Below, in pieces: positions 43,714-59,528 of a DNA stretch of 64,000 bases. The position numbers and the translations under genes are program-made. Each line of letters begins with the position of its first letter. The stretch's first letter is position 1. The notes under the pieces were generated by a model. That model saw nothing but the letters and a program-made list of their open reading frames with translations, made no database searches and was not told the DNA's origin. Source of the DNA: a phage; NCBI GenBank assembly GCA_037431425.1, contig GCA_037431425.1_4129.1; one strand, 5' to 3'.

Positions 43714-43775
43714 TTATATGTGTTGACGATTCTACTATAGTGTAGTTCTATAATACTTCATACTGGAGATACGAT

Positions 43776-44802: not shown

Positions 44803-45137
44803 TGGAGTATTTTATTGATTTACTGCCGTGGTATATGAAAGTGAGTATTTTATACTATATTATTAGTACTGGATTCTACTTCCTGATGTGGTTTTTTAAA
44901 CGACCAATTTCAGTGTACATCGCTGATAACATGCTGCAATTAAAATTACAAGCATGGTTTTATATGGCGATGTTTATGCCTATTATTCACTACTCAATGA
45001 TTAGTCTAGGTTTACGTTCTAATGGTGAACCAATTGTATTAGTATTCTATTGGGCTTCAACTCTAGTATATGTCGGTTTGTTGTTATACCCAATCGTTCA
45101 TATATTACGTGCTAAAGTTCCTGATGCGAGGTACTAA
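44799..45137 (+). CDS. small polytopic membrane protein family, 112 aa
   Basis: ATGA coupling; tail RAKVPDARY. Confidence 0.75.
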   Translation: MMEYFIDLLPWYMKVSILYYIISTGFYFLMWFFKRPISVYIADNMLQLKLQAWFYMAMFMPIIHYSMISLGLRSNGEPIVLVFYWASTLVYVGLLLYPIVHILRAKVPDARY

Positions 45138-45451
45138 TGGATATAGTAACATTGATTTACACGTTGTATTCATTCTATTTTATTATGTGTTGGATTGGAT
45201 TTTTATTTGTACTGAAGACGTTTGATTATGTTGAAAGACAGATAAAAGAATTTTGTATTCCTTTTATTGGGTCAACCATAATTAGTATTACTTGTTTGTA
45301 TTATTTGGTATGTGATCCACCAGATAACACTGCAATGATTGACTTTATGTTAGCACCAACTACTGTTATTTTTTTATGTAGTCTGCTGCCACCTATTAGT
45401 CGTGGGTTAGCAGAATTTAGACGCAAACAAAAGCTTAAACGAGGGATGTAA
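45137..45451 (+). CDS. small polytopic membrane protein family, 104 aa
   Basis: TAATG coupling. Confidence 0.7.
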   Translation: MDIVTLIYTLYSFYFIMCWIGFLFVLKTFDYVERQIKEFCIPFIGSTIISITCLYYLVCDPPDNTAMIDFMLAPTTVIFLCSLLPPISRGLAEFRRKQKLKRGM

Positions 45452-45819
45452 TGGAAATCACACTTATTATATTAACTTCTATGTTGTTTATTAGTACAGT
45501 TGTTATTATTGGCAAGTTCTTCTGTGTATCCTTCTTGGAAACCGTATATGATGAAATTGCAGATGATTATGAATTAGAAGCAGGATTTTTTATTACGTAT
45601 TGGGTTAGTTTATTACTGCTTATCACAGTATGGGTTTTGCATATATTCCAATGGGGTATGGTTGGTGATGATCCATTACTGGGAATTATTTGTGCGACAT
45701 TTGGGCTACTGACTGGTGCTGCCCACAATCTGATAGTAATTGTGCAAACTATAAAATGCGTATTAGTTCCACATTTTCAGAGAATGCACCAAAACATTAA
45801 ACGCCGCAAACGAGGTTAA
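45451..45819 (+). CDS. small polytopic membrane protein family, 122 aa
   Basis: TAATG coupling. Confidence 0.7.
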   Translation: MEITLIILTSMLFISTVVIIGKFFCVSFLETVYDEIADDYELEAGFFITYWVSLLLLITVWVLHIFQWGMVGDDPLLGIICATFGLLTGAAHNLIVIVQTIKCVLVPHFQRMHQNIKRRKRG

Positions 45820-45820
45820 T

Positions 45821-46183
45821 ATGAACGGGATAGAGTTATCTGTGTTTGGTCAATCGCTAATAATTATTAATACTTTCTTTTTCTCACTTAATGCATTTAT
45901 GTGTATTGGGAAGTATTTTCATAAACGACCATTATCAAATATATATGATGTAATTCAAACGAGATATAGTCCAGCATATACTATAGTTATTAGCAGTTTC
46001 AATTTTGGTTTTGTTTTATTAGTAATTGGAATGTTAACATCAACGTTGAATATCATCACATTCGGTCTTATGATATGTTCATTGGCATTAACATTAGTTA
46101 TATGTTGTTTAGTACTACACCTTATGGTTCTATTATATTTAAAGATATATGCAATTCACCACCGCTTAGGTACGAGGAAATGA
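45821..46183 (+). CDS. small polytopic membrane protein family, 120 aa
   Basis: adjacent start; 3 TM; basic tail. Confidence 0.7.
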   Translation: MNGIELSVFGQSLIIINTFFFSLNAFMCIGKYFHKRPLSNIYDVIQTRYSPAYTIVISSFNFGFVLLVIGMLTSTLNIITFGLMICSLALTLVICCLVLHLMVLLYLKIYAIHHRLGTRK

Positions 46184-46184
46184 T

Positions 46185-46556
46185 ATGAGTTATCGTGAAG
46201 TATTTTCTATAATTTCAATTATTATGTTCAGTGCTGGGACATTGATTTGGTTATTATACTTTTTCTGTATTAATCCAGTGTATAATATGTTATGCAATAT
46301 TAAATCAAGTACTGGCTATATGACCTTTATGATCTTTATGGGATATTATTGTCTAAGCATTTTAGGTGTTTTTTTGGTTGTTATATTTGATCTAGGACCA
46401 AACAGGGACGGTCTGCAAATGTATGAGTTAATAACTATGTTTGGGTGTATGATACCAACTGCACTAATGTTTGTAGCTATTGGTGCTGGATGTATAAAGT
46501 TATACAATTATTTAAAATCCATTCATCATTACATTCATAATAAACGTATGTCCTAA
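46185..46556 (+). CDS. small polytopic membrane protein family, 123 aa
   Basis: adjacent start; 3 TM; basic tail. Confidence 0.7.
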   Translation: MSYREVFSIISIIMFSAGTLIWLLYFFCINPVYNMLCNIKSSTGYMTFMIFMGYYCLSILGVFLVVIFDLGPNRDGLQMYELITMFGCMIPTALMFVAIGAGCIKLYNYLKSIHHYIHNKRMS

Positions 46557-46560
46557 TAAA

Positions 46561-46590
46561 AATCCAGTACTATTAAGTACTGGATTATTT
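46561..46590 (+). terminator. terminator hairpin built from two AGTACT copies
   Basis: AATCCAGTACT-ATTA-AGTACTGGATT then ATTT. Confidence 0.6.
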
Positions 46591-46601
46591 GAGGTAGAGC
46601 A

Positions 46602-47249
46602 ATGAAATCGAAATTAGGTTTGTTTTACAGTAATTATTTTGTTAAGCAGCGTAAATTTATAAAGAAATACTTCTCTACAGAGAAGTCCGGTCCTATAATT
46701 TTTAAAAGATCAAAATATTATACTTACTTAGCTGGTGTTAAACAGTCTAAAAAATTTATTGCTCTATTAAATAAAAATAAAGTGAAAGCTTCTTATGTTG
46801 AAACCAGAAAAAATTCCCCTATAACTCCTAGTGATTTTATTGAGTACGGGTGTTTTTATATTGAGAATAATGGTAACACCTATTTTATGGATATTGATTG
46901 TAATACATCGAATCTTTTTAACATTGTAATAAAACCATCAAAACAATATAATGTTTATGGTGATGCTAATATAAAATTGATCAAAAACAAAGATTGGTTT
47001 GATTTTGAAATAAATGTTTTAGATGAAAATTTTGATGAAGTGCCCAGTAAACCTGAAATATGTGATATTCTAAATAGTTTAAAAGGTAGTAGCTACAATA
47101 TACCATCTGATTTAATGTTTCAGTACTCTTTAATAGATAAAGATATTGAAGATTATATTGCGTGTGCTAAAATCTTGAATTATCTGTATGATGAATTTAA
47201 AAAGAGTTCTAAAATCACAGCATTCACACTTTATAATATTTCTATATAA
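46602..47249 (+). CDS. long-form EE-x-FQ family protein, 215 aa
   Basis: basic N-terminus; motif SDLMFQYSLIDKDIEDY. Confidence 0.7.
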   Translation: MKSKLGLFYSNYFVKQRKFIKKYFSTEKSGPIIFKRSKYYTYLAGVKQSKKFIALLNKNKVKASYVETRKNSPITPSDFIEYGCFYIENNGNTYFMDIDCNTSNLFNIVIKPSKQYNVYGDANIKLIKNKDWFDFEINVLDENFDEVPSKPEICDILNSLKGSSYNIPSDLMFQYSLIDKDIEDYIACAKILNYLYDEFKKSSKITAFTLYNISI

Positions 47250-47260
47250 TTTAAAATATT

Positions 47261-47287
47261 AAAGCCAGTTCTCTCGTACTGGCTTTA
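47261..47287. terminator. bidirectional terminator between convergent genes
   Basis: AAAGCCAGT..TACTGGCTTT. Confidence 0.7.
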
Positions 47288-47290
47288 ATA

Positions 47291-48436
47291 TTATTTTTTC
47301 CAAGGAAGTAACGAAGTTGGTATTTTGATAGGTATATTTGATGAAACAACATCAGGAAAATTTGCATCCCCACAAACATACAAATTATCGTCTTCGTCTA
47401 TCAATAATATATAGTTGTAACTTCTACAAAACCCATTTAAACCTCTTCCCTCTAATGCAGATAAATTTATTTCAGTGAATTGTGTTATATATGTTTCATT
47501 TGAACCAACACCACATTGACCATTAGCATTTATACCACAAGTAAGCAATTTATTATTGTTTTGAATTATACATGATGGTCCAGCAAGGTTTGTACCTAGT
47601 TCACCTACAACGTTGACCTCACCTTGTAATGATAAATTTGGAATCACTGTACTCATTGGGACACGAGATGTATTTCCAACACCTGCTTGTCCTGAACCAT
47701 TAGTGGATGCTACTTTAACAGTACCGTCATTAAGAAAAATATAAGATGTTTCGATTGTATTAACTGCTTGAGTAGCTGATGTTATTGACGTATCCTGTTT
47801 GAATTTGAGTACATTTGTTGTTGTCGAACCAGAGATATATGTAGCACCTGCGTACCAATATGTTCCATCCTGGAGTACTAAACCAGTACTTCTAATTGAA
47901 CACCCAGCACTTCGAACATTTTCTATATGACTATATGTAAAGGTTGATACAATTGAAGATTCACCATTACCAAATACCCCACCAGTACCTGCACCACAGA
48001 AAAACCATTTACCGTTTTTCAAAAATACACGCATACAAGCAGAAATAACCACACTATCAATATCACTTGCAGTTACACCAAAATCGGTAAAGAAATGAGT
48101 TATATCAATCCAATTGCCACCAGTATTTGATGGGAGATGTGGAATTACAACTCTAGTCCCTGTGTACCAGATTGTATCATCATCTTTAATAACAAGCGTA
48201 CCTTGAACACCCCCCCAATACCTGGTTACATTAGTATTAACAAGTGTCCACTCATTAGATGATTCCGTTGAGCCATTACCACCTTGACCATATGATGATG
48301 AACCGCACCAGTATAAATTGCCATTTTTATTTAAATAAAATTTTGCATCAGCCGAACATTGTAATCTGTATTTGAATACAGTTTTTGGTGCTGGTGCAAT
48401 ATTTGCATACTTAATCATTCTTCCAAAAGGTAACAT
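47291..48436 (-). CDS. RCC1-like repeat beta-propeller protein, 381 aa
   Basis: MLPFGRMIKYANIAP N-terminus; repeats such as LYWCGSSSYGQGGNG, LLTCGINANGQCGVG. Confidence 0.8.
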   Translation of the reverse strand: MLPFGRMIKYANIAPAPKTVFKYRLQCSADAKFYLNKNGNLYWCGSSSYGQGGNGSTESSNEWTLVNTNVTRYWGGVQGTLVIKDDDTIWYTGTRVVIPHLPSNTGGNWIDITHFFTDFGVTASDIDSVVISACMRVFLKNGKWFFCGAGTGGVFGNGESSIVSTFTYSHIENVRSAGCSIRSTGLVLQDGTYWYAGATYISGSTTTNVLKFKQDTSITSATQAVNTIETSYIFLNDGTVKVASTNGSGQAGVGNTSRVPMSTVIPNLSLQGEVNVVGELGTNLAGPSCIIQNNNKLLTCGINANGQCGVGSNETYITQFTEINLSALEGRGLNGFCRSYNYILLIDEDDNLYVCGDANFPDVVSSNIPIKIPTSLLPWKK

Positions 48437-48478
48437 AATTTCTCTCCCTCATTCATTATACTGTATTTAACCCAATTA
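48437..48478 (-). promoter_or_regulatory. conserved leader/promoter box of RCC1-like genes
   Basis: minus strand reads ..AAATACAGTATAATGAATGAGGGAGAGAAATTATG. Confidence 0.5.
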
Positions 48479-48480
48479 AG

Positions 48481-48503
48481 AAAAGCCAGTATCAAGTACT
48501 GGT
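48481..48503 (-). terminator. rho-independent terminator
   Basis: minus strand ACCAGTACTTGATACTGGC plus TTTT. Confidence 0.7.
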
Positions 48504-48509
48504 ATTTTA

Positions 48510-49859
48510 TTATTGTAATGGAATTTCAGTGAGTGTTTTATATGTACTTCCGTTATACACCCCTCTCCAATATACTTTACCATCAGTACTAACCACTAAT
48601 AATCCATATGTTGTAAACCCAAGAGTACCACCAACATACATAGCATCTTTGATTCTAATACCAATGTCTTCATATGTAAATGACGCGACTGCACCCGCTT
48701 GCCATGAAGGACTAGCGTAGTAATCACTATAAACACCATGTGCTTTATATATTGATGTTGTTCCTGGTTCAAAAATGACAGTTCCACAGTAGTTCATTCG
48801 TATTTTAGTACTGGATGAAGTTGGTACATTTATACCTACATCATCTTTTATCCCTGTGGTTAGGACGTTAAAACCACCCGCCACACGGTTGACGTCATTC
48901 GCACCGATTAAATACATACCAACGTTGTAGCCCATATAAAACACACTAGAGCTTCCATTCCAGAAAGAAAAACCACCACCATTCCCACAGCGATATAGTT
49001 GTGAATTTGAGCAGTACATCATACCTTCGTTTGTCGCATCAAATTCATCTGCTTTTCCTATTGTAGCTACAGTAGTCCAAGTTTTAATTACTTGGTTTGT
49101 ACTAGCTGGTGTTTGTATACCATATCGTATATTATACCCTTTACCGACTATTGTACCATCTTCTAATTTGGCATAAAGTACAGGTCTATTACCAACAAAA
49201 TACATATTATTGTGTGACATGTCTATTGTGCATCTTAATGAAACTACTTTTTGTTTCAATTGATTATCTTTAGTAAAAGAAGTAAAGTAGTAATCTGATG
49301 TTGAGTTGTTTATTAAACCTTGTATTGACAACCCCATATACCAGATTTCTCCCTTACTATTCAAAGCTGCCAAAATACAACTATATTTTGAAGTGTATGT
49401 TGGGTTTACTGAAGTTGCTGGTCCTTTGTCATATCCACCACAGAATACCATCTCCACAACTTCACCTACGTTAGCAAAATAAGAAGATACATTGATAAAA
49501 CCATTTGTTATAAAAGGTGCTGTATTTATACTTGAATGTGTGAATATCCCATTTGCATATACACCACAAAAATGATATGAACCATCATTATCTTGGACTA
49601 TTATTCCATTTGATAGTAACCAAAAATTGTTTACATTTTTTCTTACTAATTCGATTCCTGCCCCATTAGTTGGCGTTATACCAAAAGAAACATATTTTGT
49701 TTGACCAATTCCATATAAATTTCCATTTGATGCTAATATTGCACCAAACCAATTACCACCACCATTCTTGTTATGACCCATACCTATAGAATCAAATTTC
49801 TTAACAGTAGGAGCTTGTACTTTGTTCCCATAATTCACCATTCTTCCAAAAGGTAACAT
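48510..49859 (-). CDS. divergent RCC1-like repeat protein, 449 aa
   Basis: same MLPFGRMVNYGN N-terminus; degenerate G-rich blade repeats. Confidence 0.75.
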   Translation of the reverse strand: MLPFGRMVNYGNKVQAPTVKKFDSIGMGHNKNGGGNWFGAILASNGNLYGIGQTKYVSFGITPTNGAGIELVRKNVNNFWLLSNGIIVQDNDGSYHFCGVYANGIFTHSSINTAPFITNGFINVSSYFANVGEVVEMVFCGGYDKGPATSVNPTYTSKYSCILAALNSKGEIWYMGLSIQGLINNSTSDYYFTSFTKDNQLKQKVVSLRCTIDMSHNNMYFVGNRPVLYAKLEDGTIVGKGYNIRYGIQTPASTNQVIKTWTTVATIGKADEFDATNEGMMYCSNSQLYRCGNGGGFSFWNGSSSVFYMGYNVGMYLIGANDVNRVAGGFNVLTTGIKDDVGINVPTSSSTKIRMNYCGTVIFEPGTTSIYKAHGVYSDYYASPSWQAGAVASFTYEDIGIRIKDAMYVGGTLGFTTYGLLVVSTDGKVYWRGVYNGSTYKTLTEIPLQ

Positions 49860-49900
49860 ATTTCCCTCCTTTATTCATTATACTATATTTAATACTAAAA
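49860..49900 (-). promoter_or_regulatory. conserved leader/promoter box
   Basis: minus strand GTATTAAATATAGTATAATGAATAAAGGAGGGAAATATG; TATAAT at 49877-49882; no -35. Confidence 0.55.
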
Positions 49901-49925
49901 GAAAAAGCCAGTACAGAGTACTGGC
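49901..49925 (-). terminator. rho-independent terminator
   Basis: GCCAGTAC..AGTACTGGC plus T-run on minus strand. Confidence 0.75.
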
Positions 49926-49931
49926 ATTATT

Positions 49932-51083
49932 TTAAATTGGTGAATCTTCAACAAATATAGTACTAGCAGTACCACCTGATACTGGGTTAGTACCACTTGA
50001 ATATATTTTGTTTCCATCTGTCATATATGTTTTACCATAGCAACTTTGGATTTTAACATCTTTGAAATTCAAATCAGGAGTAATAGATTTAGTGTAAGTT
50101 AATACGTTAGTAGTTGAACCTGTACTTAATTGTCCATAGTATGAAGTTGCAGAGTTATTACCAGCAACGTATACGCCAGTATCAGTAATAACAAAGTTCG
50201 AGTAATATCCGTACCCATATCCTATATCTAATATATTTCCTTGTGGTTGATTTACCACTGCTGTTGTCAATATTTGGGTTGTAGCCCCAGTACCAGTCGC
50301 TGCCTGACCATATGTTTGGTCACCACCTGTGTACACTGAAACAACTGACGTGCTTTTGTTTCTTGCAATACCTTGCACCATTCCATTAATTGTACTTATA
50401 AATGCAATAGTGTTAACAGTTGCTGGTAATCTGGATGACAATGTGAAGAATTTATAAGAAGTAGGACCGTCAGTGTTCCCATAAACTTCACCTGTGTAAT
50501 ATAATCTACCACTTTCAGCAATAAATGAACACATGTTTATACCTGCAATAATCCTTTTCGGTATCGCACCAGTTGGTATAATTGATTGTACTAAAGTAGA
50601 AAAACTACTAGTATAAGAATAATTACCAAGCTGTCCTCTTGTGTTATAACCACCACACCAAATGGTCCCATTACTCATAAGTATTGAAATGAAGTTATTT
50701 CCTAGTGATATTTCTGTAATTGTTCCTTGTGATTTGACTTGGTTAATAACGGTTTGCATAGAAGTCCATGCATTAACAGATGACGTACCCATACACACAT
50801 TGTATTGTTGTCCTGTGTATTGATATGTCCCATCTGACTTGTGAATCATTGTAGCATACTGACCACACCATACATCAGTGACATCAGATGCAGTTACAGT
50901 CCATGATGATCTGGCTATATTGTCACCTAAACCCAACTGACCATTTGAATTGTTACCACGGGTGTATAACTTACCATTACTACCCAATACCATAACCCAG
51001 TTATACCCTGCAACTAATTTTTTAATGGCAGCAGGGGATGGTGCAACATTCCCATAATCAAACATTCTAACAAAAGGTAACAT
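49932..51083 (-). CDS. RCC1-like repeat beta-propeller protein, 383 aa
   Basis: LYTRGNNSNGQLGLGDN and IWCGGYNTRGQLGN are canonical RCC1 blade motifs. Confidence 0.85.
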   Translation of the reverse strand: MLPFVRMFDYGNVAPSPAAIKKLVAGYNWVMVLGSNGKLYTRGNNSNGQLGLGDNIARSSWTVTASDVTDVWCGQYATMIHKSDGTYQYTGQQYNVCMGTSSVNAWTSMQTVINQVKSQGTITEISLGNNFISILMSNGTIWCGGYNTRGQLGNYSYTSSFSTLVQSIIPTGAIPKRIIAGINMCSFIAESGRLYYTGEVYGNTDGPTSYKFFTLSSRLPATVNTIAFISTINGMVQGIARNKSTSVVSVYTGGDQTYGQAATGTGATTQILTTAVVNQPQGNILDIGYGYGYYSNFVITDTGVYVAGNNSATSYYGQLSTGSTTNVLTYTKSITPDLNFKDVKIQSCYGKTYMTDGNKIYSSGTNPVSGGTASTIFVEDSPI

Positions 51084-51124
51084 ATTTCCCTCCTTTATTC
51101 ATTATACTATATTTAATACTAAAA
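51084..51124 (-). promoter_or_regulatory. conserved leader/promoter box
   Basis: identical to the 49860 copy. Confidence 0.55.
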
Positions 51125-51125
51125 G

Positions 51126-51150
51126 AAAAAGCCAGTACTTGAGTACTGGC
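51126..51150 (-). terminator. rho-independent terminator
   Basis: GCCAGTACTTGAGTACTGGC (two AGTACT) with flanking A and T runs. Confidence 0.75.
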
Positions 51151-51157
51151 TTTCTTA

Positions 51158-52348
51158 TTACAATTTTCTAGGTGTATCCAGAACATATCTATTTGTTTTA
51201 GGGCCACCATCATCATAAGTTCCGGTTGAATATATATTTTTCATATCAGCAGTTAGGAAAGTACGCAACGAACCGCGATATATTTTTATTTTATCATACA
51301 TAGAATATGTTATTTCTGACGGCAATGGACATGCAGTAAATTTACCAATGGTAGCATCATAACCAACACCCAATGTACCAGCATAACTACTCGCATTTAA
51401 ACCAGTTGCATATACACCTGCACTCGTAACTAGTATACTAGATTGTGCTGGGTATCCAGTATGGATTGAATAATAAGTACCAGGTGGCAATGTGGCACTA
51501 TTATTTCCTAAAACTCCATTAACATTGCTAGATGTAGTTTTATTTCCCCATGCTCCATTATTAGCTAATCCACCAACTAGAAACTGACGTGCTCCTGTAC
51601 TTGGATTCTCTACTAAAGCACTGACAGCACCAAATGAACAAACAGTATATTGTAATGTTTTTGTATATGTGGTACTTGGCTGATATAAAGTATATTCATT
51701 AAATGGTGTCCATGTGGTACTAGTACTTATGCCAGATGTAATACCACCAATATATAAATTATTTTGTTTATCAAACAACATTACACAGTTATATGTTGAC
51801 ATTATTTGTGCAATATCAACATCTGGTGTTACAGCTTTAACAAATGAGCCATCGGTTATTTGTTGAGTTTTTCCAGTACCATCTGCGAATTGTCTAGCAC
51901 TATTCCACCCTGTACTCCATATTGTATTATTATCCATTAAGAAAGTAAACCACGTAGTACCTGCATACATTTGTTTAATTGAAGTACTTGAACTTTGTTT
52001 GTACAAATTTTCAATATATTGGTTATAACTTAAAAACGTAGTAGTACTAGTTTCTAAACCAATATGACTACCATATCCACAATAAAAATAATTTAAGTCA
52101 TTATCTTGAACTAACAAAGTTCCTTGTGTCATCCAGCAATCTTTGATATTTTCTCTAATTAATGTCCACGACCTTACTGCATTATTATTTCCTCTACCAA
52201 ACTTCCCCCAACTATTACTGCCTCGTGCGTATAGTTGACCGTCGGTATAAAGTACAACAACCTCAGTATCAGTTGGTATTATTTTCTTAATTTGAAGTGG
52301 GACGGGTACAATATTCCCGTACTTAACTATTCTTCCAAAAGGTAACAT
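51158..52348 (-). CDS. RCC1-like repeat beta-propeller protein, 396 aa
   Basis: MLPFGRIVKYGNIVP; LYARGSNSWGKFGRGNN. Confidence 0.8.
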   Translation of the reverse strand: MLPFGRIVKYGNIVPVPLQIKKIIPTDTEVVVLYTDGQLYARGSNSWGKFGRGNNNAVRSWTLIRENIKDCWMTQGTLLVQDNDLNYFYCGYGSHIGLETSTTTFLSYNQYIENLYKQSSSTSIKQMYAGTTWFTFLMDNNTIWSTGWNSARQFADGTGKTQQITDGSFVKAVTPDVDIAQIMSTYNCVMLFDKQNNLYIGGITSGISTSTTWTPFNEYTLYQPSTTYTKTLQYTVCSFGAVSALVENPSTGARQFLVGGLANNGAWGNKTTSSNVNGVLGNNSATLPPGTYYSIHTGYPAQSSILVTSAGVYATGLNASSYAGTLGVGYDATIGKFTACPLPSEITYSMYDKIKIYRGSLRTFLTADMKNIYSTGTYDDGGPKTNRYVLDTPRKL

Positions 52349-52386
52349 ATCCCCTCCTTATTCATTATACTATATTTAATCAAAAA
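52349..52386 (-). promoter_or_regulatory. conserved leader/promoter box
   Basis: minus strand ..AAATATAGTATAATGAATAAGGAGGGGATATG. Confidence 0.55.
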
Positions 52387-52387
52387 T

Positions 52388-52410
52388 AAAAGCCAGTATC
52401 AAGTACTGGC
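52388..52410 (-). terminator. rho-independent terminator
   Basis: GCCAGTATCAAGTACTGGC. Confidence 0.7.
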
Positions 52411-52424
52411 ATAGTTTTATAATA

Positions 52425-53531
52425 TTATTTCGGCATCGTAATTGCAGACCATGAATTTGTAGTAATTGGACCTGGTATGTACACTAAAGAACCACATGCA
52501 TAAATTTGTCTATTCCCATCATACACAACACTAAAGTTAGTACAAGTAAACAATGACGAATTTAATGGATTGTAAGTATCTAATGTTAGTGTATTCACCC
52601 ACTTATTTGAACCTAGACCACCTGACCTACCAAATGCACCAGTACTGTATATCTTACCTTCAGTTGTTGCATATATATTAACATATGAAGTTGAACTGGA
52701 TTTAGCTATTTTATGTATCTTACTATCAATAGCACTGGAGTTAAATGTAAAAGGATATATTTCTACGTTAGTTGATGAACCATTACCGAGTTGACCAGAA
52801 TACTGCAAGCCAGCGACGTATGTACCACCACCTGAATATGCTATAGTACTAGTACTGTTACCTCCCATTATTTTAACACTAGTTAAACGACTTACTAAAG
52901 TAGTGTACTGACCTTTACTAACACCTAGTGAACCATAACTACTAGTACCACATCCAATAAGGTTACCGTTGGATGTTAAGATTAATGTGTTGTTTTGTGT
53001 ACCATATATATCAGCAACTTCATTTGTACCAGTATTCAGTACTAACACAAAAGCACTCTGTGAATTAGGATATCCACCACCGAGTGAATAGTTACTGTTC
53101 ATGCCTCTTCCATAAACCTTTGTACCACTAGCATCTACGTAGTGCATCGTATCTGAACCAATTGATATCATTTTAATATTAGATATGTGTGGAAATGAAG
53201 AAGTAACATCTAAACCACCCAAGGGGATTGCAGTATTACCCGTACCTAACTGAGAAGTAACTCCGTGCATTCTGAACTCTTCTCCTTTGAGATACAGAAG
53301 ATTGTACCCACCAGCCCATGCATCAGAAACACCCTCTGCAACTAATATCCAATTATTTTTTTCCGCTGTACCAACGGCATTCAACTGCCAATATGAATTA
53401 TCTCCACATCCATATAATGTACCATCACTATATAGTACGTACAAATTATTGGTTCCACAAAATACTTTCTTGATCGTTATACCTTCTGGAGCTATATTTC
53501 CATAGGTCATTATTCTTGCAAAAGGTAACAT
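52425..53531 (-). CDS. RCC1-like repeat beta-propeller protein, 368 aa
   Basis: MLPFARIMTYGNIAP; LYGCGDNSYWQLN, LIGCGTSSYGSLGV. Confidence 0.8.
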   Translation of the reverse strand: MLPFARIMTYGNIAPEGITIKKVFCGTNNLYVLYSDGTLYGCGDNSYWQLNAVGTAEKNNWILVAEGVSDAWAGGYNLLYLKGEEFRMHGVTSQLGTGNTAIPLGGLDVTSSFPHISNIKMISIGSDTMHYVDASGTKVYGRGMNSNYSLGGGYPNSQSAFVLVLNTGTNEVADIYGTQNNTLILTSNGNLIGCGTSSYGSLGVSKGQYTTLVSRLTSVKIMGGNSTSTIAYSGGGTYVAGLQYSGQLGNGSSTNVEIYPFTFNSSAIDSKIHKIAKSSSTSYVNIYATTEGKIYSTGAFGRSGGLGSNKWVNTLTLDTYNPLNSSLFTCTNFSVVYDGNRQIYACGSLVYIPGPITTNSWSAITMPK

Positions 53532-53570
53532 ATCCCCTCCTTATTCATTATACTATATTTAATACAAATA
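53532..53570 (-). promoter_or_regulatory. conserved leader/promoter box
   Basis: same box as other copies. Confidence 0.55.
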
Positions 53571-53572
53571 AG

Positions 53573-53595
53573 AAAAGCCAGTATCAAGTACTGGC
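53573..53595 (-). terminator. rho-independent terminator
   Basis: GCCAGTATCAAGTACTGGC. Confidence 0.7.
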
Positions 53596-53601
53596 CTATA
53601 T

Positions 53602-54771
53602 TTAAACTGGCGAATCTAATATAAATTCTAAACTACTAATGCCACCATATGTGACATCTGTTCCCGTGCTATATACAAAATTACCATCAGTTATATAAGT
53701 TCGGTTATAACTACCTGCCATCTGTGACTTACTATAATCAAACCCATCAGGTACGATTGCTTTGGTATATACTAATGCATTAGTAGATGTACCAATACCT
53801 AACATACCAGCTTGTGTAGATTGATTGTAGCCGCAACAATATATACCATCTGTTGTAGCAATAACTTGGTTATAATATGAAGTATTGTTAGCAATGCTTA
53901 CTACATCACCAGGTGGCATTAGTGATGCTGTTTGTACCTCAAATGCTCTATAATCTTTGAGAGAACCATCTTTCCCATCTGCTTGTGCACCAAATATTCT
54001 TGAACCACCATTTGCGATGATAGTTTTACCAGTAGGATCAGTGCCTATTGCCATTGCCATTGAAGTACCATTATTCACATAGTACTTTATATTAATTGTA
54101 TTACTTAAGCTGGTAGGAGCACCATAATATATATTATATAACTTACTTCCTGAACTTGTAACTGCATTGACTCTTCCTGTATAAAATAACCATCCTTGGT
54201 TTGTAACATAACCGTGCATTAAATTACTTGCAAACAATTTAACAGGTAATTGATTTGCTACGGTAGGAACAGTACTTTTGACGAATCTACCAGAAACATA
54301 GTTAATTGTTGTTCCATCACCCAACTGACCATCCGACCCTACTCCAGTACTCCATATTGTTTGGTCTGATAGTAACACACTTGTAGTCTGATAACTAATG
54401 GCTATATCTAATATTGGTAATGTTAATGTATTGAATATAGGCATAGCAGATGTCCATATTGATACTCCTGACCCTTTCATACCAACAGTTGTTGAACTTC
54501 CACTGTACCATATTTCATTATTGCTTTTCTTAACAACTATCGACGTGGCTCCCATCCAAAAATCTTCAACACCAGAAGTACTAAAAGTCCATGTAGTAAC
54601 AGTATTTTTGTGACCTAAACCCAAAATACCATATGCATTATCACCACGCACATATAAATCACCACTGTTTGTTAAAACAGCAACATTATCGTTGTTAGCA
54701 AGTATTTTTTTAATATTTGGTTTAGCAGGTGCAATATTCCCGTACTTAACCATCCTCGCAAAAGGTAACAA
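53602..54771 (-). CDS. RCC1-like repeat beta-propeller protein, 389 aa
   Basis: TTG start with GGAGA SD and non-conserved leader; LYVRGDNAYGILGLGHK, IWSTGVGSDGQLGDG. Confidence 0.8.
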   Translation of the reverse strand: MLPFARMVKYGNIAPAKPNIKKILANNDNVAVLTNSGDLYVRGDNAYGILGLGHKNTVTTWTFSTSGVEDFWMGATSIVVKKSNNEIWYSGSSTTVGMKGSGVSIWTSAMPIFNTLTLPILDIAISYQTTSVLLSDQTIWSTGVGSDGQLGDGTTINYVSGRFVKSTVPTVANQLPVKLFASNLMHGYVTNQGWLFYTGRVNAVTSSGSKLYNIYYGAPTSLSNTINIKYYVNNGTSMAMAIGTDPTGKTIIANGGSRIFGAQADGKDGSLKDYRAFEVQTASLMPPGDVVSIANNTSYYNQVIATTDGIYCCGYNQSTQAGMLGIGTSTNALVYTKAIVPDGFDYSKSQMAGSYNRTYITDGNFVYSTGTDVTYGGISSLEFILDSPV

Positions 54772-54810
54772 AATTAAATCTCCAAAATTAAAATAATTAT
54801 ATAGTATTTA

Positions 54811-54843
54811 CAAAAATACCAGTACATATTTCAGTACTGGTAT
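54811..54843 (-). terminator. rho-independent terminator
   Basis: ACCAGTAC-ATATTTCA-GTACTGGT. Confidence 0.65.
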
Positions 54844-54847
54844 ATTA

Positions 54848-55969
54848 TTAAAAGGGCAACGGTAACTCAGTAAAAGAACTTACGTCCGGTAAACCATACA
54901 TTGAATTAGCATCACCACAGTAATACCACTTCGTAGAATCATGTACCACCGATAAACGCAGTGCACATAACACTTCCTGTATGTCATTAAACACCATCGG
55001 GACTAACTCATATGTATCTGCAAATGAAGATACACCACCACTCGCATGAAAAGTATTTGTCCCAGCATAAAATAACTGATTAGTGTTCTTACCCACAGCA
55101 AATGTAATCAAATTCCCATCATTCTCCCATAAAGAAGAAAACTTATCAACACTACCAGAAAGCTCTGTGTAAGTACTCGTAATGGCATTAACCGCCGCCG
55201 CATTACCCATCTGTTTATTCAAGTTCTGCCCAGCAATAAAATATCTCGTTCGTGCACTAGAATCAGTATATAATAACCCAGTGTTCGTGGTCATCATTCC
55301 AATGTCCTTAATCGTCATACCAGGCTGTGAATAACTTAGATACGAAGTTAAATTAACATTATTACCCAACGAACCGTTAGAACTCATGCCACAACGATGT
55401 AATATACCACTTGTATCAACGTAGATAGTACTAACACCACTCGTATACAACTCTTGTACATTATTCGCAATAAACACAGCAGTCGCCTTATTACTAACCC
55501 CACCAAATGATAGGTTATTATCAAATCCCTTAGCGTATAATTGATTATTAGTAGTCAATAATCCAATCGTGTAATAAGACATTTTCATATCCCTTACTGT
55601 ACTCAAATCTACTGCCCCAAATTGATACGTAACATCTGTCCATTTGAAAATCTGTGCACTACCAACACCACCCGTTTCAAACCATTTGTCACCACAGTAC
55701 AATATGCGATTATCCTTAGTAAAGATAACTGTTAACGCTCCACTACCACACGCAAACTTTACATCACTTCTAACCTTCGTCCAATCACGTACATAGGTAG
55801 TGGTGTTATTACCTATACCTAACTTGCCATAACGGTTATAACCACGCACCCATAAATCACCACTCTTAGTAATTAATAGTAATGCGTCTCCTGTACTTAT
55901 TATTCGAAATCCCGATCTAGGATCAGGTACAATATTCCCGTACTTAACCATTCTCCCAAAAGGTAACAT
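54848..55969 (-). CDS. RCC1-like repeat beta-propeller protein, 373 aa
   Basis: MLPFGRMVKYGNIVP; LWVRGYNRYGKLGIGNN. Confidence 0.8.
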   Translation of the reverse strand: MLPFGRMVKYGNIVPDPRSGFRIISTGDALLLITKSGDLWVRGYNRYGKLGIGNNTTTYVRDWTKVRSDVKFACGSGALTVIFTKDNRILYCGDKWFETGGVGSAQIFKWTDVTYQFGAVDLSTVRDMKMSYYTIGLLTTNNQLYAKGFDNNLSFGGVSNKATAVFIANNVQELYTSGVSTIYVDTSGILHRCGMSSNGSLGNNVNLTSYLSYSQPGMTIKDIGMMTTNTGLLYTDSSARTRYFIAGQNLNKQMGNAAAVNAITSTYTELSGSVDKFSSLWENDGNLITFAVGKNTNQLFYAGTNTFHASGGVSSFADTYELVPMVFNDIQEVLCALRLSVVHDSTKWYYCGDANSMYGLPDVSSFTELPLPF

Positions 55970-56008
55970 AATTCCCTCCTTTATTCATTATATCATATTT
56001 ACCCAAAA
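55970..56008 (-). promoter_or_regulatory. conserved leader/promoter box (first gene of array)
   Basis: minus strand ..AAATATGATATAATGAATAAAGGAGGGAATTATG. Confidence 0.55.
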
Positions 56009-56013
56009 AACAC

Positions 56014-56042
56014 TTGACACCCTTTCAGTACTGTTGTACGAT
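56014..56042 (+). promoter_or_regulatory. promoter TTGACA-N17-TACGAT with AGTACT in spacer
   Basis: divergent from the RCC1 array; drives the small-gene array. Confidence 0.6.
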
Positions 56043-56067
56043 AGAAGGAATATTAGGAGAACTACAC

Positions 56068-56295
56068 ATGACAAATACCCTTAAGTACTACCTCAATACT
56101 CTGCCCGACCTAGAGTACGGGAAGTTTCTCGCAGATAGTTCGTGGCTGATTGAGCTAAAAACACATAACAGCCCTGGATGCACCCTTATGATGAACAATG
56201 CTATTGATACCCTTATAGTGAGTATTTTACATAGCAATATCTACAAGGATAACAATAAACAATTAACAAAAATATTAGTACTGCTATCTCTATGA
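56068..56295 (+). CDS. small tandem-array protein, 75 aa
   Basis: trimmed to ATG 56068 with AGGAGA SD; KYYLNTLP N-terminal pattern. Confidence 0.65.
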   Translation: MTNTLKYYLNTLPDLEYGKFLADSSWLIELKTHNSPGCTLMMNNAIDTLIVSILHSNIYKDNNKQLTKILVLLSL

Positions 56296-56495
56296 ATATC
56301 GAACAGTTCTACATCAATGCACTACCAACTAAAAGTCTTCAAGAAAGCCTACTGTATACACAAAAGAATTTTAAAAACTTCAAACGTTGCCCTAAACTAC
56401 TGAACTCGTACATGAATAATATCATAAGAAATGTTTTACAAGGAGAAGAAAGTATGCAATACTATCACATCATTATCCTTATATTGGAGTACTAA
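56292..56495 (+). CDS. small tandem-array protein, 67 aa
   Basis: ATGA coupling; EQFYINALP; ends ..ILILEY. Confidence 0.65.
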   Translation: MNIEQFYINALPTKSLQESLLYTQKNFKNFKRCPKLLNSYMNNIIRNVLQGEESMQYYHIIILILEY

Positions 56496-56496
56496 T

Positions 56497-56706
56497 ATGA
56501 ATACCGAACATAAAGAATTCTACACCAAATACCTCAGCAACGAAGAACAATTGTTTCTAAGAAGTGTATCACCTTTACGTATAGATACACCACACGCCAG
56601 AGAATGCTTTAATAATTGTATACGTAGTACCCTAGAAGCAATCGAATATAATAACAAAAATATTATGTACTCCAGTTTAATCGGACTAATATACTTCTAT
56701 GAATAA
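56497..56706 (+). CDS. small tandem-array protein, 69 aa
   Basis: GTACTAATATG junction; HKEFYTKYLS; paralogue of 59716. Confidence 0.65.
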   Translation: MNTEHKEFYTKYLSNEEQLFLRSVSPLRIDTPHARECFNNCIRSTLEAIEYNNKNIMYSSLIGLIYFYE

Positions 56707-56890
56707 TCATAAAGATTTCTATTGCAGTAAACTACACAAACAATACAGAGATTCATTTCCCAATGAACCTATGGATATGAATAGTCCCTTTTATAACTTT
56801 GACTTCAGACTGGAGACACGTTATGCAATAGAACATCAATTTCCTGAAACTAAGTACTTATCTATCATGAACCTCATCTTTAAGTTCTAA
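56699..56890 (+). CDS. small tandem-array protein, 63 aa
   Basis: HKDFYCSKL; paralogue of 59918. Confidence 0.6.
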   Translation: MNNHKDFYCSKLHKQYRDSFPNEPMDMNSPFYNFDFRLETRYAIEHQFPETKYLSIMNLIFKF

Positions 56891-56942
56891 AAGGTGCACC
56901 AAGGACAGAGTATTTTAATATAGTAAGGCTAATTACACTACC

Positions 56943-57128
56943 ATGAATCACATAAGCTACTACTACCAACAACTATCCGACAGAGACAAGTACAGTCACA
57001 ACTCCCATGTGTGGTACTACAAACGCGGCAGTATAAGAGACAAACATCATTACTTCAGTGCTGCTATAACAGAAGTACTAACAACTAAGTACACGTACAG
57101 AGCAGTACTGAAACTTATCTCTATATAA
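56943..57128 (+). CDS. small tandem-array protein (LKLISI subtype), 61 aa
   Basis: ends AVLKLISI. Confidence 0.65.
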   Translation: MNHISYYYQQLSDRDKYSHNSHVWYYKRGSIRDKHHYFSAAITEVLTTKYTYRAVLKLISI

Positions 57129-57136
57129 GGTACTAT

Positions 57137-57322
57137 ATGAATACATTTGAGTACTATACCAATAAACTATCTATGCCTGAAAGATCTCATCTCTATGTGT
57201 GGAGAAATGCGTATAAAAACGGAAATAAACTTATACAAAGAAATTCCCTTACAGTGTGTACCAATTTAATTAACGCAGAGTACCGCACATATATTGAAGT
57301 ACTGAAACTCATCTCTATCTAA
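57137..57322 (+). CDS. small tandem-array protein (LKLISI subtype), 61 aa
   Basis: MNTFEYYTNKL..EVLKLISI. Confidence 0.65.
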   Translation: MNTFEYYTNKLSMPERSHLYVWRNAYKNGNKLIQRNSLTVCTNLINAEYRTYIEVLKLISI

Positions 57323-57330
57323 GGTACTCT

Positions 57331-57510
57331 ATGCAAGAATTCTATATCTATAATCTCCAGCACAAAGATAGATACAACTATAATCAATTCCAAAGGTACT
57401 ACACCGTCGGGAACATCAAAGATAAAAAACGATACCTACTATCATGTACTGTAGATGCACAAAACAAAAAGTACACGTACAGAGAAGTACTGAAACTAAT
57501 TTCTATTTGA
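57331..57510 (+). CDS. small tandem-array protein (LKLISI subtype), 59 aa
   Basis: hand-translated MQEFYIYNLQ..EVLKLISI; below track cut-off. Confidence 0.6.
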   Translation: MQEFYIYNLQHKDRYNYNQFQRYYTVGNIKDKKRYLLSCTVDAQNKKYTYREVLKLISI

Positions 57511-57518
57511 GGTAATAT

Positions 57519-57707
57519 ATGAATACTTTTGAGTACTACTTCAATAAACTAAATTCCATAGAACAAAATATGTACAATTCATATATTAAGTACTATCAAT
57601 CATCTGCACCTGGAATTAAAAATATATCAATAAAGATTATCACTAACCGTGTACTGACATCTGAACGTTATATGTATATGGATGCACTGAAACTCATCTC
57701 TATGTAA
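57519..57707 (+). CDS. small tandem-array protein (LKLISI subtype), 62 aa
   Basis: MNTFEYYFNKL..DALKLISM. Confidence 0.65.
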   Translation: MNTFEYYFNKLNSIEQNMYNSYIKYYQSSAPGIKNISIKIITNRVLTSERYMYMDALKLISM

Positions 57708-57717
57708 GGAATAAACT

Positions 57718-57897
57718 ATGAACAATTTCTATATAGAACACATAACCATAAAAGACCGTTTCATGTACGACACCTTCGTGAAGTACTACAACCTCGCAAC
57801 TAACAGTACTAAAAATATCAATCTCAATAGCTGCATACACCAAGCACTAACAAAAGAAAATCCCTTCAGGGAAATCCTTGCACTTGCATCTGTATAA
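57718..57897 (+). CDS. small tandem-array protein (LKLISI subtype), 59 aa
   Basis: hand-translated MNNFYIEHIT..EILALASV; below track cut-off. Confidence 0.55.
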   Translation: MNNFYIEHITIKDRFMYDTFVKYYNLATNSTKNINLNSCIHQALTKENPFREILALASV

Positions 57898-57907
57898 AGG
57901 AATTCAA

Positions 57908-58573
57908 ATGAAACTTAATCCACAAAGTAAACAATACCTTAAGCACTTTAAGTACCTCAACAGTATTCAAGCAGAATCTATTACATCTTCTTATACTTAT
58001 CACCCGAATATACTAAAGAAACGAAATAAAAAGAATAAATCCAGTACAGATCTAGTATCAAAGAACCTCAAATCGTACTTGAAGAAAAATAATATCTCTA
58101 TTCATTGTGCGAATATCTATAATACTGATTTAAAAGCATTGAGTACTAATACCAGCACAAAAACACTAAAGAATACATCTATCTATATCTATATGCACCT
58201 GGATAATATCCCGTGCACTATAATTCTATCTTTCGGGAATGTATACTTCTTCGGGAATTGTAATACCACCCATGATATCCGTACAGCACAATTCCAAATC
58301 GGAGATATGTACTGCATGGGTTCAGAAAAAATACACGATAACATGCATTTCTTCCAACAGCAACGTACAGAAGAAACTAATACAGTACTAGAATTCCTCA
58401 AAGAACTTCAAAACAAAGAATTATCTCAAGAAGAACTATTCATGTACAGCACCGTAATCAATAATCCAGAACTCTACAAAAACGCGTACAATCTAACAAA
58501 ACATGTGCAGGAACTTATTAGTACTAATAAGAAAATTCATCACCTCATGACATATATTGCAAACTATGCATAA
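57908..58573 (+). CDS. long-form EE-x-F-x-ST family protein, 221 aa
   Basis: trimmed to ATG 57908 with AAGGA SD; basic N-terminus; motif SQEELFMYSTV. Confidence 0.7.
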   Translation: MKLNPQSKQYLKHFKYLNSIQAESITSSYTYHPNILKKRNKKNKSSTDLVSKNLKSYLKKNNISIHCANIYNTDLKALSTNTSTKTLKNTSIYIYMHLDNIPCTIILSFGNVYFFGNCNTTHDIRTAQFQIGDMYCMGSEKIHDNMHFFQQQRTEETNTVLEFLKELQNKELSQEELFMYSTVINNPELYKNAYNLTKHVQELISTNKKIHHLMTYIANYA

Positions 58574-58751: not shown

Positions 58752-58752
58752 T

Positions 58753-58947: not shown

Positions 58948-58948
58948 T

Positions 58949-59131: not shown

Positions 59132-59132
59132 T

Positions 59133-59321: not shown

Positions 59322-59331
59322 AGAGAACATT

Positions 59332-59526: not shown

Positions 59527-59528
59527 TC

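Follow-up and report, generated by a model that had tools for sequence, protein, structure and literature searches.

Why should a jumbo phage carry, side by side, seven genes whose products begin almost identically and then diverge? The window analysed here, a 64,000-nt stretch of DNA, derives from an Asteriusvirus (a 121Q/phAPEC6-like, Rak2-like jumbo coliphage). On its minus strand, at 47291-55969 (8.7 kb), an ORF scan placed seven consecutive reading frames of 368-449 aa, R1-R7, exactly where the original prediction had them (Table 1). Few unexplained features of Asteriusvirus and other Rak2-like jumbo phages are as conspicuous as their RCC1 genes. Such arrays have already been described in phAPEC6 (gp001-010, 'eleven RCC1-like proteins'), 121Q (121Q_234-248), PBECO4 (multicopy sets) and GAP32 (GAP32_001); in the Asteriusvirus group they are annotated as "DNA condensation proteins", and published accounts treat them as candidates for that role, a label that we consider mistaken. 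The window array is a direct member of this known set, which forms phrog_4219, so that its earlier presentation as a candidate novel host-recognition system was overstated. Within the literature searched, the published accounts made no mention of the shared N-terminal peptide (hereafter the tag), of its occurrence on other folds or of the cassette structure of the array, and we found no description of the tag itself. We propose, with a probability of about one half, that the array encodes exchangeable binding modules displayed by a retained virion-incorporation tag and supplied from autonomous, probably late cassettes.

Table 1. Genes, terminator-like hairpins, promoter-like boxes and example tag segment of the array, in window coordinates
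Feature	Position	Strand	Remarks
R1	47291..48436	-	381 aa, tagged RCC1-like; Pfam RCC1_2/WD40_RLD; phrog_4219 E 4e-96
R2	48510..49859	-	449 aa, tagged, divergent; phrog_4219 E 1.6e-13
R3	49932..51083	-	383 aa, tagged, predicted 7-bladed RCC1-like propeller; missing from ph0011 (closest relative)
R4	51158..52348	-	396 aa, tagged RCC1-like; Pfam match
R5	52425..53531	-	368 aa, tagged RCC1-like; Pfam match; missing from ph0011
R6	53602..54771	-	389 aa, tagged RCC1-like, TTG start; Pfam match
R7	54848..55969	-	373 aa, tagged RCC1-like; Pfam WD40_RLD below curated cut-off; phrog_4219 E 1e-56
Tag-coding segment, R3 example	51039..51083	-	first 15 codons, MLPFVRMFDYGNVAP; codon table, invariant columns
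Terminator hairpin after R1, bidirectional	47255..47292	.	also serves convergent + gene ending 47249
Terminator hairpin after R2	48486..48502	-	CCAGTAC..loop..GTACTGG then T run
Terminator hairpin after R3	49907..49925	-	terminator scan
Terminator hairpin after R4	51126..51155	-	terminator scan
Terminator hairpin after R5	52392..52410	-	terminator scan
Terminator hairpin after R6	53575..53597	-	terminator scan
Terminator hairpin after R7	54816..54843	-	terminator scan
Promoter-like box R1	48455..48469	-	TAAATACAGTATAAT, then SD
Promoter-like box R2	49877..49891	-	TAAATATAGTATAAT
Promoter-like box R3	51101..51115	-	shared box
Promoter-like box R4	52364..52378	-	shared box
Promoter-like box R5	53547..53561	-	shared box
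Promoter-like box R6, variant	54796..54810	-	TAAATACTATATAAT
Promoter-like box R7	55987..56001	-	TAAATATGATATAAT

The bodies of the seven proteins are indeed highly diverged, with measured pairwise identities of only 24-40%. RCC1-type Pfam matches were obtained for six of them, with RCC1_2 or RCC1 above the gathering score in R1, R3, R4, R5 and R6 and a match below it in R7; R2 had no match to Pfam. The phrog_4219 profile matched R1, R3, R5 and R7 with E-values of 1e-56 to 4e-96 and R2 with 1.6e-13 over residues 1-444, and residues 1-215 of R2 matched the family profile (hhalign, 98.4%). The claim that every protein carries RCC1 blade motifs therefore stands by Pfam for six, and for R2 as a profile-level match in which recognition is limited to the first ~215 aa and the last blade. 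Structure prediction returned the anticipated fold for R3: its AF2 model (pLDDT 90.4, pTM 0.88) has 28 strands in seven groups of four, and in Foldseek it matched UVR8 (E 3.5e-24, TM 0.82) and, at TM 0.67-0.71, RCC1, RPGR and HERC2. On this model R3 is, with high confidence, a 7-bladed RCC1/UVR8-like propeller, and homology suggests a propeller for R1 and R4-R7 as well; the R2 model (pLDDT 54.5, residues 266-399 left unmodelled) did not confirm a seven-bladed fold. The array shares the seven-bladed architecture and the Pfam RCC1/RCC1_2 repeats with the RLD propellers (RCC1, UVR8, RPGR, HERC2) but differs from them in its 14-24% sequence identity, its added N-terminal tag, its virion association (through homologues) and its bacterial host context without Ran or chromatin. 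By sequence, R1-R7 belong to the phrog_4219/Rak2-like RCC1 paralogue family, and six of the seven genes have orthologues in ph0011, phAPEC6 or 121Q (59-98% identical). R4 is the best-conserved member across Asteriusvirus (86-97% in all three phages), R3 orthologues in other genomes are 85-88% identical, and R1 is 70% identical to one 121Q array member and 59% to phAPEC6 gp001; R7 has an orthologue in ph0011 only among the three phages compared. R5 and R6 are 75% and 79% identical to phAPEC6 gp009 and gp003, respectively, both of which have been detected in virions.

All seven proteins open with MLPFxR(M/I)xxY(G/A)N, and 7 of the 17 columns that are invariant over the whole R1-R7 alignment fall within residues 1-12, which bears out the near-invariant shared N-terminus. 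The 45 nt that begin each gene, and so close its interval in + coordinates, are 74-89% identical among paralogues versus 29-46% further in. Because conserved tag residues are encoded with synonymous differences (AGA/AGG, TAT/TAC, GGG/GGA, AAT/AAC, CCA/CCC/CCT), selection acts on the tag peptide. The common beginning is no artefact of wrong start choice: Shine-Dalgarno (SD) sequences lie 5-8 nt upstream of the starts, and tryptic peptides covering the tag have been recovered from homologues in CBB virions. In the R3 model residues 1-11 form a low-confidence helix and residues 12-19 a linker, and the first propeller strand begins at residue 20; the tag is thus placed outside the propeller, as befits a real, separable module. 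The broader consensus is MLPF-x-(R/Q/I)-hydrophobic-x-x-Y-G-N over 12-15 residues, with K, N, D or T at residue 9 in the window, Q in XbC2 and Glu, in an (L/I)-x-E context, in many CBB-type tags.

The tag is also present on unrelated bodies in CBB, XbC2, BF and metagenomic Rak2-like genomes. [quoted passage not shown] A 667-aa RCC1+Kelch fusion and three families of unrecognised fold (phrog_6011, phrog_4474 and phrog_6409) carry it as well. There are 5-15 tagged places per genome; CBB_144 sits between nrdD and nrdG, and CBB_247 between a recombination-endonuclease subunit and endonuclease VII. Judged from these sequences, the tag is independent of fold and class-wide in Rak2-like jumbo phages, and the swappable-module architecture that had been predicted from the array alone recurs on unrelated binding folds in sister genera. 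RCC1, Kelch and LamG are all typical ligand-binding modules.

Do tagged proteins reach the particle? Published virion proteomes of phAPEC6, CBB and GAP32, obtained by mass spectrometry (MS), detect homologues of the array proteins, and through these the expected virion presence was found. Virion membership of the array proteins is read from gp003 and gp009, the orthologues of R6 and R5, from four further tagged RCC1 proteins among the six in the phAPEC6 proteome (gp005, 006, 007 and 010), from the tagged RCC1 protein GAP32_001 and from nine CBB proteins. The RCC1 members in phAPEC6 gave few peptides each (1-4), and late proteins made in abundance can contaminate purified virions. In CBB we found at least 11 tagged ORFs (CBB_144, 247, 536, 537 and 548-554). 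Of the 554 CBB ORFs, 55 encode virion proteins detected by MS, and these include nine of the 11, CBB_144 and CBB_247 among them (hypergeometric P = 2.4e-8). As the scan covered the fetched loci, the count of tagged ORFs is a minimum, and further tagged ORFs without MS detection would weaken the enrichment. The two tagged proteins missing from the CBB virion proteome are CBB_550 and CBB_554. Four of the virion-detected tagged proteins are encoded scattered among metabolic and recombination genes. The six proteins singled out by the CBB authors as candidates for hair, whisker or capsid fibres are all tagged (6/6); equating the tag with hairs is unsupported, since GAP32, which is not reported as hairy, also has tagged proteins.

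In T4, the prohead protease cleaves capsid-targeting sequences (CTSs) off their proteins after (L/I)-x-E. Published CBB virion peptides, by comparison, lie over the tag, LLQYGNK at residues 7-13 of CBB_553 and LFEYANVIIPPNYK at residues 7-20 of CBB_536, so that, unlike a T4 CTS, the tag is retained on the mature protein. This observation counts against an alternative that we regard as unlikely, in which the tag would be a T4-style CTS that loads the proteins into the prohead core; carried inside the head, they would enter the host on ejection and act there as effectors, for instance on host defences or other host targets. In its favour, virion MS cannot separate the inside from the outside of the particle, the phAPEC6 inner body has no assigned composition, and the lineage encodes both a T4-like prohead protease/scaffold and a gp55-like late sigma factor. 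Moreover, a short conserved N-terminal CTS is the sole common feature of the diverse, fast-evolving T-even internal proteins (IPI, IPII, IPIII and others; PMC3012670), the same logic as seen here: a short N-terminal peptide on otherwise diverse virion proteins, in a lineage with T4-like head-assembly genes. The Glu at residue 9 of many CBB-type tags, in its (L/I)-x-E context, would also suit such a role, but LFEYANVIIPPNYK spans an uncleaved L-F-E|Y site in mature CBB virions and, because residue 9 is K/N/D/T in the window and Q in XbC2, no cleavage site is conserved. The bodies, too, are 40-kDa propellers, lectins and Kelch domains, which elsewhere belong to tail fibres and cell surfaces, and the tag is not known to resemble the T4 CTS in sequence. 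A location of the tagged proteins inside the head seems less likely. A T4-type CTS removed by the protease was rejected, as both peptides span the tag and Glu9 is not conserved.

A different internal role, that of DNA-condensation or inner-body proteins, is suggested by the database names and by the phAPEC6 authors, and strikes us as very improbable. Virion association, the derivation of the RCC1 name from a chromatin-binding protein and the phAPEC6 inner body of 91 x 18 nm would accord with it. The predicted pI, however, lies at 5.95-8.7, and just ~5-8% of residues (20-32 per protein) are Lys or Arg, with a roughly equal number of Asp+Glu, a composition untypical of DNA-condensing proteins that gives no hint of DNA binding. 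Lectin and Kelch bodies bear the tag as well, and the set is hypervariable: even near-identical phages have different copy numbers, which would not be expected of a conserved packaging scaffold. The name itself was transferred in annotation from eukaryotic RCC1, and bacteria have no Ran, the partner of that protein.

How is such a set organised and varied? A terminator-like hairpin was found on the minus strand after each of the seven genes, as the claim of individual terminators required, and both strands together hold 13 terminator-like sites against 4.1 +/- 2.0 in shuffles. The upstream box that six genes were said to share is TATAGTATAATGAATAA-AGGAGG; the leader of R6 differs, yet keeps TAAATA then TATAAT. 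Terminator hairpin, promoter box, SD and tag codons make up ~100-110 nt, the sole DNA conserved between units. In comparison with ph0011, the closest relative (97% nucleotide identity), R3 and R5 are whole-unit indels whose junctions fall within 103- and 111-nt alignment overlaps, that is, within the shared cassette. This alignment indicates that whole gene units are gained and lost by recombination inside the ~100-nt block. Array repertoires differ among four Asteriusvirus genomes, and two such proteins have been reported to be <50% identical in amino acids between phages with 97% ANI. The PeSL composite promoter/terminator cassettes of T4-type phages (Arbiol 2010 PMC2839356; Comeau 2014 PMC4122927) are similar in that small conserved terminator and promoter motifs flank each variable gene and act as points of homologous exchange, with whole-gene indels between close relatives, as for R3 and R5; in the array, seven hairpins with T runs are each followed by TAAATA..TATAAT and an SD (predicted promoters). 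The array's cassette differs in sequence, its promoter core is late-like (TAAATA) whereas PeSL promoters are early, its shared block runs on into the coding region as the tag, and the flanked genes are all of one functional class.

This continuity of the conserved block with the intergenic cassette, indel junctions included, could mean that the 5' end is conserved chiefly as nucleic acid, serving for recombination or gene conversion or for translation initiation. In that case the peptide would have no function, and virion association would come from the bodies or from co-purification. Codons 1-4 are nucleotide-invariant in 33/33 Asteriusvirus copies examined. We nonetheless hold this to be quite improbable: the peptide is kept across genera with other codons (for Pro3, CCT in Asteriusvirus but mostly CCA in other genera, with variation also at Tyr, Gly and Asn), in operon-type arrays without the Asteriusvirus intergenic cassette and on isolated genes in unrelated genomic contexts, and each unrelated body would need its own route into the virion.

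TAAATA lies at -30 to -39 in all seven cassettes. This core also precedes 14 of the 26 phAPEC6 structural-block genes versus 5 of the 73 + strand ORFs of the window, heads tagged arrays of other genera (GGTAAATAC) and lies upstream of CBB_144 and CBB_537. This late-type core suggests that the array is probably expressed late; because the box also holds a perfect sigma-70 -10 hexamer (TATAAT), timing cannot be read from the sequence alone.

In related phages the peptide also heads lectin and Kelch proteins and marks virion components, and its probable role is therefore to attach exchangeable binding modules to the particle. In the model that we favour, each cassette would encode a globular binding module, here an RCC1-like propeller, behind a 12-15-residue N-terminal tag that would bring the protein into the virion and stay on the mature protein. 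Most likely, the flexible tag docks at a common site on an exposed virion structure, for which the hair-/whisker-like fibres or capsid-hexamer fibres seen on phAPEC6 and CBB are candidates. A mixture of accessory adhesins would in this way be presented on the particle, and homologous recombination in the ~100-110-nt block would add, delete and swap whole units to give a strain-specific repertoire. The original prediction of interchangeable modules thus gains from the separable tag, the unrelated folds, the virion homologues and the late-type TAAATA core; host recognition, an exterior location and a common adaptor are its more conjectural parts. More tentatively, at somewhat less than even odds, MLPFxRxxxYGN may be a general, fold-independent 'plug' by which any late-expressed carrier is mounted uncleaved on a common exposed virion socket (hair/whisker or capsid-hexamer fibres), a natural display system whose modules (RCC1, Kelch, LamG, others) would be swapped as cassettes or dropped anywhere as morons. 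A role for the tag in recognition by an assembly chaperone or in oligomerisation, in place of docking, we deem a long shot; the tag is short, partly hydrophobic and a predicted weak helix, and phAPEC6 capsid fibres look dimeric or trimeric, but its persistence in the mature particle is no less compatible with a structural contact than with a transient chaperone signal.

What would a docking tag imply? If the account is true, dozens of genes in each genome would be re-annotated as encoding virion accessory proteins, the hair/whisker and capsid fibre proteins of phAPEC6 and CBB would become approachable, cassette exchange would explain strain-to-strain variation, and a minimal 12-residue peptide would become available for foreign-protein display on jumbo phages. 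Modular receptor-binding proteins, the tailspikes and tail fibres of many phages, likewise combine a conserved N-terminal anchor with a variable distal domain. The array resembles them in its conserved N-terminal attachment element, its exchangeable ligand-binding part and the several modules per virion. Their anchor, however, is a folded domain of roughly 100 aa, whereas the tag has only ~12-15 residues; they form trimeric fibres, whereas the array bodies are probably monomeric propellers or lectins, for which attachment to the baseplate is only putative. The view that RCC1 is not a standard phage receptor-binding fold went too far, as some annotated tail-fibre proteins already contain RCC1-like domains (Pseudomonas phages Littlefix and PollyC, PVP-SE1 gp40 and the 'tail protein' PHROG 11922). 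In metagenomic RCC1-like proteins, the N-termini look tail-fibre-like by eye.

The seven consecutive minus-strand genes of the original prediction (R1–R7, 368–449 aa) are found in an ORF listing between 47291 and 55969, and Pfam RCC1, RCC1_2 or WD40_RLD matches in six of the seven proteins bear out the RCC1-type motifs that had been read from the sequence. R2 has no Pfam match; its residues 1–215 match the family profile (hhalign, 98.4%) and residues 1–444 match phrog_4219. The array is thereby confirmed, with R2 as a divergent member. What the members share is a short N-terminal peptide, the tag. The motif.LPF.R...Y.N occurs seven times in a six-frame search of the 64-kb window, solely at the starts of R1–R7, and seven of the 17 invariant columns of their alignment lie here (M1, L2, P3, F4, R6, Y10 and N12). 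The bodies are 24–40% identical. The paralogues share 74–89% DNA identity over the first 45 nt and 29–46% beyond, and varied synonymous codons at conserved tag residues point to constraint on the peptide. Wrong start codons were ruled out by SD spacing, by retention of codons 2–6 even in R6, which starts with TTG, and by MS peptides. A signal peptide or lipobox was rejected on inspection, since the tag lacks the length and hydrophobicity for either; bacterial RCC1 homologues devoid of the tag bear real lipoprotein signals. BLAST matches between paralogues are often limited to the first ~85–95 residues (37–42% identity), so that conservation is higher in the tag and the initial one or two blades than in the remainder, a pattern that a docking interface or a recombination tract might explain.

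The AF2 model of R3 (30 aligned sequences; pLDDT 90.4, pTM 0.88) consists of seven four-stranded groups, 28 strands in all. Foldseek matches it to UVR8 (TM 0.82), RPGR, the HERC2 RLDs and RCC1 and, among viral models, to Rak2-like paralogues, giant-virus RCC1 proteins and annotated tail-fibre proteins (Pseudomonas phages Littlefix and PollyC, PVP-SE1 gp40); PHROG 11922, ‘tail protein’, also matches R3. In the model, residues 1–11 form a low-confidence helix (pLDDT 57), residues 12–19 a linker, and residue 20 opens the propeller, which places the tag outside the blade strands. A role as closure (velcro) strand was rejected on this position of the first AF2 strand and because LamG, Kelch and other bodies bear the tag too. 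The R2 model is poor (pLDDT 54.5, residues 266–399 unmodelled), which concerns the fold of its C-terminal half.

How far does the tag extend beyond this array? Word-indexed protein searches returned few relatives; far more was learned from tblastn with the tag and from scanning for DNA patterns. A 23-residue tag query gave 61 phage records which, bar a few weak partial matches (E ~1), are 310–386-kb jumbo phages of the Rak2-related group. Asteriusvirus genomes carry 5–15 tagged places each; other bearers are the Munch-like Salmonella phages, GAP32, Yersinia fHe-Yen9, Serratia BF, the Erwinia pEa_SNUABM phages, Pectobacterium CBB, Xanthomonas XbC2 and Klebsiella fENko-Kae01. Every gene of the syntenic array of CBB, BF and XbC2 begins with MLPF..., and the bodies are Kelch propellers, Laminin_G_3 lectins, RCC1 propellers and 200–250-aa proteins of unknown fold. 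The DNA-pattern scan of viral contigs added tagged ORFs in uncultured contigs of 355–371 kb; ~25 of its 43 matches in viral contigs are due to chance and fall in short ORFs or in a 352-aa protein family of no relation to the tagged proteins. Scan and previously retrieved loci together give 93 distinct MLPF-ORFs, among which there are a 667-aa RCC1+Kelch fusion and a second tag flavour, MLPFPIISNT. At least six unrelated body families stand behind the tag (Pfam and PHROGs). Tagged proteins of 667–676 aa occur in three uncultured Rak2-like contigs (L028, L020 and L045), of which L028 was run against Pfam (Table). The tag is a separable element, present on several folds.

The RCC1-like gene family itself is already known, as phrog_4219. 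A sequence search with the region gave 37 phage records. Each belongs to an Asteriusvirus-type jumbo phage of E. coli or Salmonella, with ph0011 the best at 97%, and in relatives the array genes are named ‘regulator of chromosome condensation’, ‘DNA condensation protein’, ‘HERC1’ or ‘RPGR’. Multicopy RCC1 sets have been noted in 121Q and PBECO4, and the RCC1 protein GAP32_001 is present in GAP32 virions (PMC5259590). Eleven RCC1-like proteins were reported for phAPEC6, whose virion proteome includes gp003, 005, 006, 007, 009 and 010 as ‘DNA condensation protein’ or hypothetical; its authors speculated that RCC1-like proteins organise DNA in an inner body (PMC7247149). According to the phAPEC6 record these six entries are array genes, gp003 being 79% identical to R6 and gp009 75% identical to R5. 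There is little to support a DNA-condensation role: predicted pI values of the array proteins are 5.95–8.7, with Lys and Arg roughly balanced by Asp and Glu. In the same record (1–16000) several tagged ORFs are unannotated or have wrong starts, which placed them beyond reach of the published MS search.

In CBB, the 55 virion proteins detected from 554 ORFs include 9 of the 11 or more tagged ones (hypergeometric P = 2.4e-8). All four tagged ORFs outside the array (CBB_144, 247, 536 and 537) are in the published virion proteome. Together with CBB_551 and 552 they form a set of six MS-detected proteins which, being absent from GAP32, were proposed by the CBB authors as candidates for the tail ‘hairs’ (PMC5259590); all six are tagged. 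Tagged genes placed singly among unrelated genes are moron-like in behaviour: CBB_537 has its own TAAATA-type box, and CBB_536 follows closely behind the preceding gene. Association of the tag with virion proteomes is strong across three phages, the P value being that for CBB.

Table. Coordinates of tagged genes and neighbouring features
Feature	Location	Strand	Remarks
R1	window 47291-48436	-	first gene of the seven-ORF array
R7	window 54848-55969	-	last gene of the array
CBB_144	L052:1621-2385		between nrdD and nrdG; tagged, MS-detected; own TAAATA-type box
CBB_247	L050:1633-2367		between recombination-endonuclease subunit and endonuclease VII; tagged, MS-detected; closely behind preceding gene
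CBB_536/537	L051:1869-3190		tagged, MS-detected
RCC1+Kelch fusion, 667 aa	L028:6416-8416	-	Pfam; single tag ahead of both propellers
phAPEC6 example tagged ORFs	L002, starts 2434, 6063, 7325		unannotated or wrong start
phAPEC6 gp002	L002, tagged start 3614		annotated from 3506
Small membrane-protein genes	window 43776-46556	+	eight tandem paralogues
Small-ORF array	window 56014-60326	+	~20 tandem paralogues
tRNA genes	window 6153-9988	+	six: Ser-TGA, Arg-TCT, Ser-GCT, Met-CAT, Asn-GTT, Thr-TGT
Lone 384-aa ORF	window 14817-15971	-	amid long + strand gene run; without MLPF tag

The tag is retained in mature virions. Peptides from it appear in the supplementary table for CBB: LLQYGNK of CBB_553 (tag residues 7–13, preceded by Arg) and LFEYANVIIPPNYK of CBB_536 (residues 7–20), the latter spanning an uncut L-F-E/Y. 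Sites of this type are cut by T4-type prohead proteases, and these phages encode such a protease. The uncut site argues against a cleaved T4-like capsid-targeting sequence, and position 9 is variable (K, N, D or T in the window, Q in XbC2), so the tag holds no conserved cleavage site. By inference, the uncut site also speaks against a stay of the tagged proteins in the maturing prohead. A role as internal, ejected effectors, by analogy with T4 internal proteins, is possible but less likely. An external location is favoured: the tag is left uncut by the prohead protease, tail fibres too carry binding modules with these body folds, and phAPEC6 and CBB bear prominent unassigned external fibres. 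We propose that the tag brings about virion incorporation by docking to a common site, and that the modules behind it would be exposed on the virion and may act as accessory adhesins. Full-text searches found no paper linking ‘MLPF’ to phage in the sense of a tag, a literature search for Asteriusvirus cryo-EM gave no relevant match, and the UE-S1 paper does not discuss the array genes. The tag concept and the cassette architecture described below appear to be undescribed and are directly testable.

Each array gene is followed by a conserved hairpin, CCAGTAC-loop-GTACTGG, with a T run. Over both strands the scan gives 13 terminator-like sites, where shuffled sequence gives 4.1 ± 2.0; the minus strand accounts for seven, one behind each gene, as predicted. 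The leader box held in common also stands, as TATAGTATAATGAATAA-AGGAGG upstream of the array genes with a variant at R6. A sigma-70 promoter scan did not list these boxes because their -35 is poor. TAAATA lies at -30 to -39 in every one of the seven cassettes, and T4-late-like (A)TAAATA precedes phAPEC6 head, baseplate and other structural genes: it lies at -60 to -16 of 14/26 genes in the phAPEC6 structural block versus 5/73 plus-strand window ORFs and an expected 0.02 per 45 nt. Tagged arrays of other genera have a terminator and then GGTAAATAC at the array head, and TTAAATA and CTAAATA precede CBB_144 and CBB_537, respectively. These motifs fit late expression of the tagged genes but do not prove it, since the Asteriusvirus box also holds a perfect TATAAT. 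A separate terminator/promoter unit per gene is an Asteriusvirus feature; the majority of tagged genes in Mimasvirus and Eneladusvirus are coupled operon-style (TAAGGAG-ATG).

Alignment with ph0011 breaks into window blocks 43001–49928, 51048–52419 and 53494–56503, consecutive blocks overlapping in ph0011 by 103 and 111 nt. These overlaps identify R3 and R5 as whole-unit indels with junctions in the shared cassette, which comprises terminator, promoter, SD and tag codons, as expected for unequal homologous recombination and parallel to the PeSL cassettes of T4-type phages (PMC2839356, PMC4122927). The repertoire varies between the window, phAPEC6, 121Q and ph0011: R4 keeps 86–97% identity in this comparison, and R3 has no orthologue above 36% in the three relatives and orthologues of 85–88% elsewhere. 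Two such proteins are <50% identical between phages with 97% ANI (fEgEco12 paper). The alignments show gene exchange at the level of the cassette.

Adjoining the array are eight genes for hydrophobic proteins of 104–123 aa that resemble multi-pass membrane proteins. This neighbourhood recurs in ph0011 and CBB (CBB_539–546, ‘putative membrane proteins’, beside the tagged array), and the arrays of BF and XbC2 likewise adjoin a run of small membrane-protein genes; a functional link to the tagged genes is possible. Directly past the divergent R7 promoter region, the proteins of the small-ORF array (59–77 aa) have M..EYY..KL at the start and LKLISI- or LIFRY-like sequences at the end.
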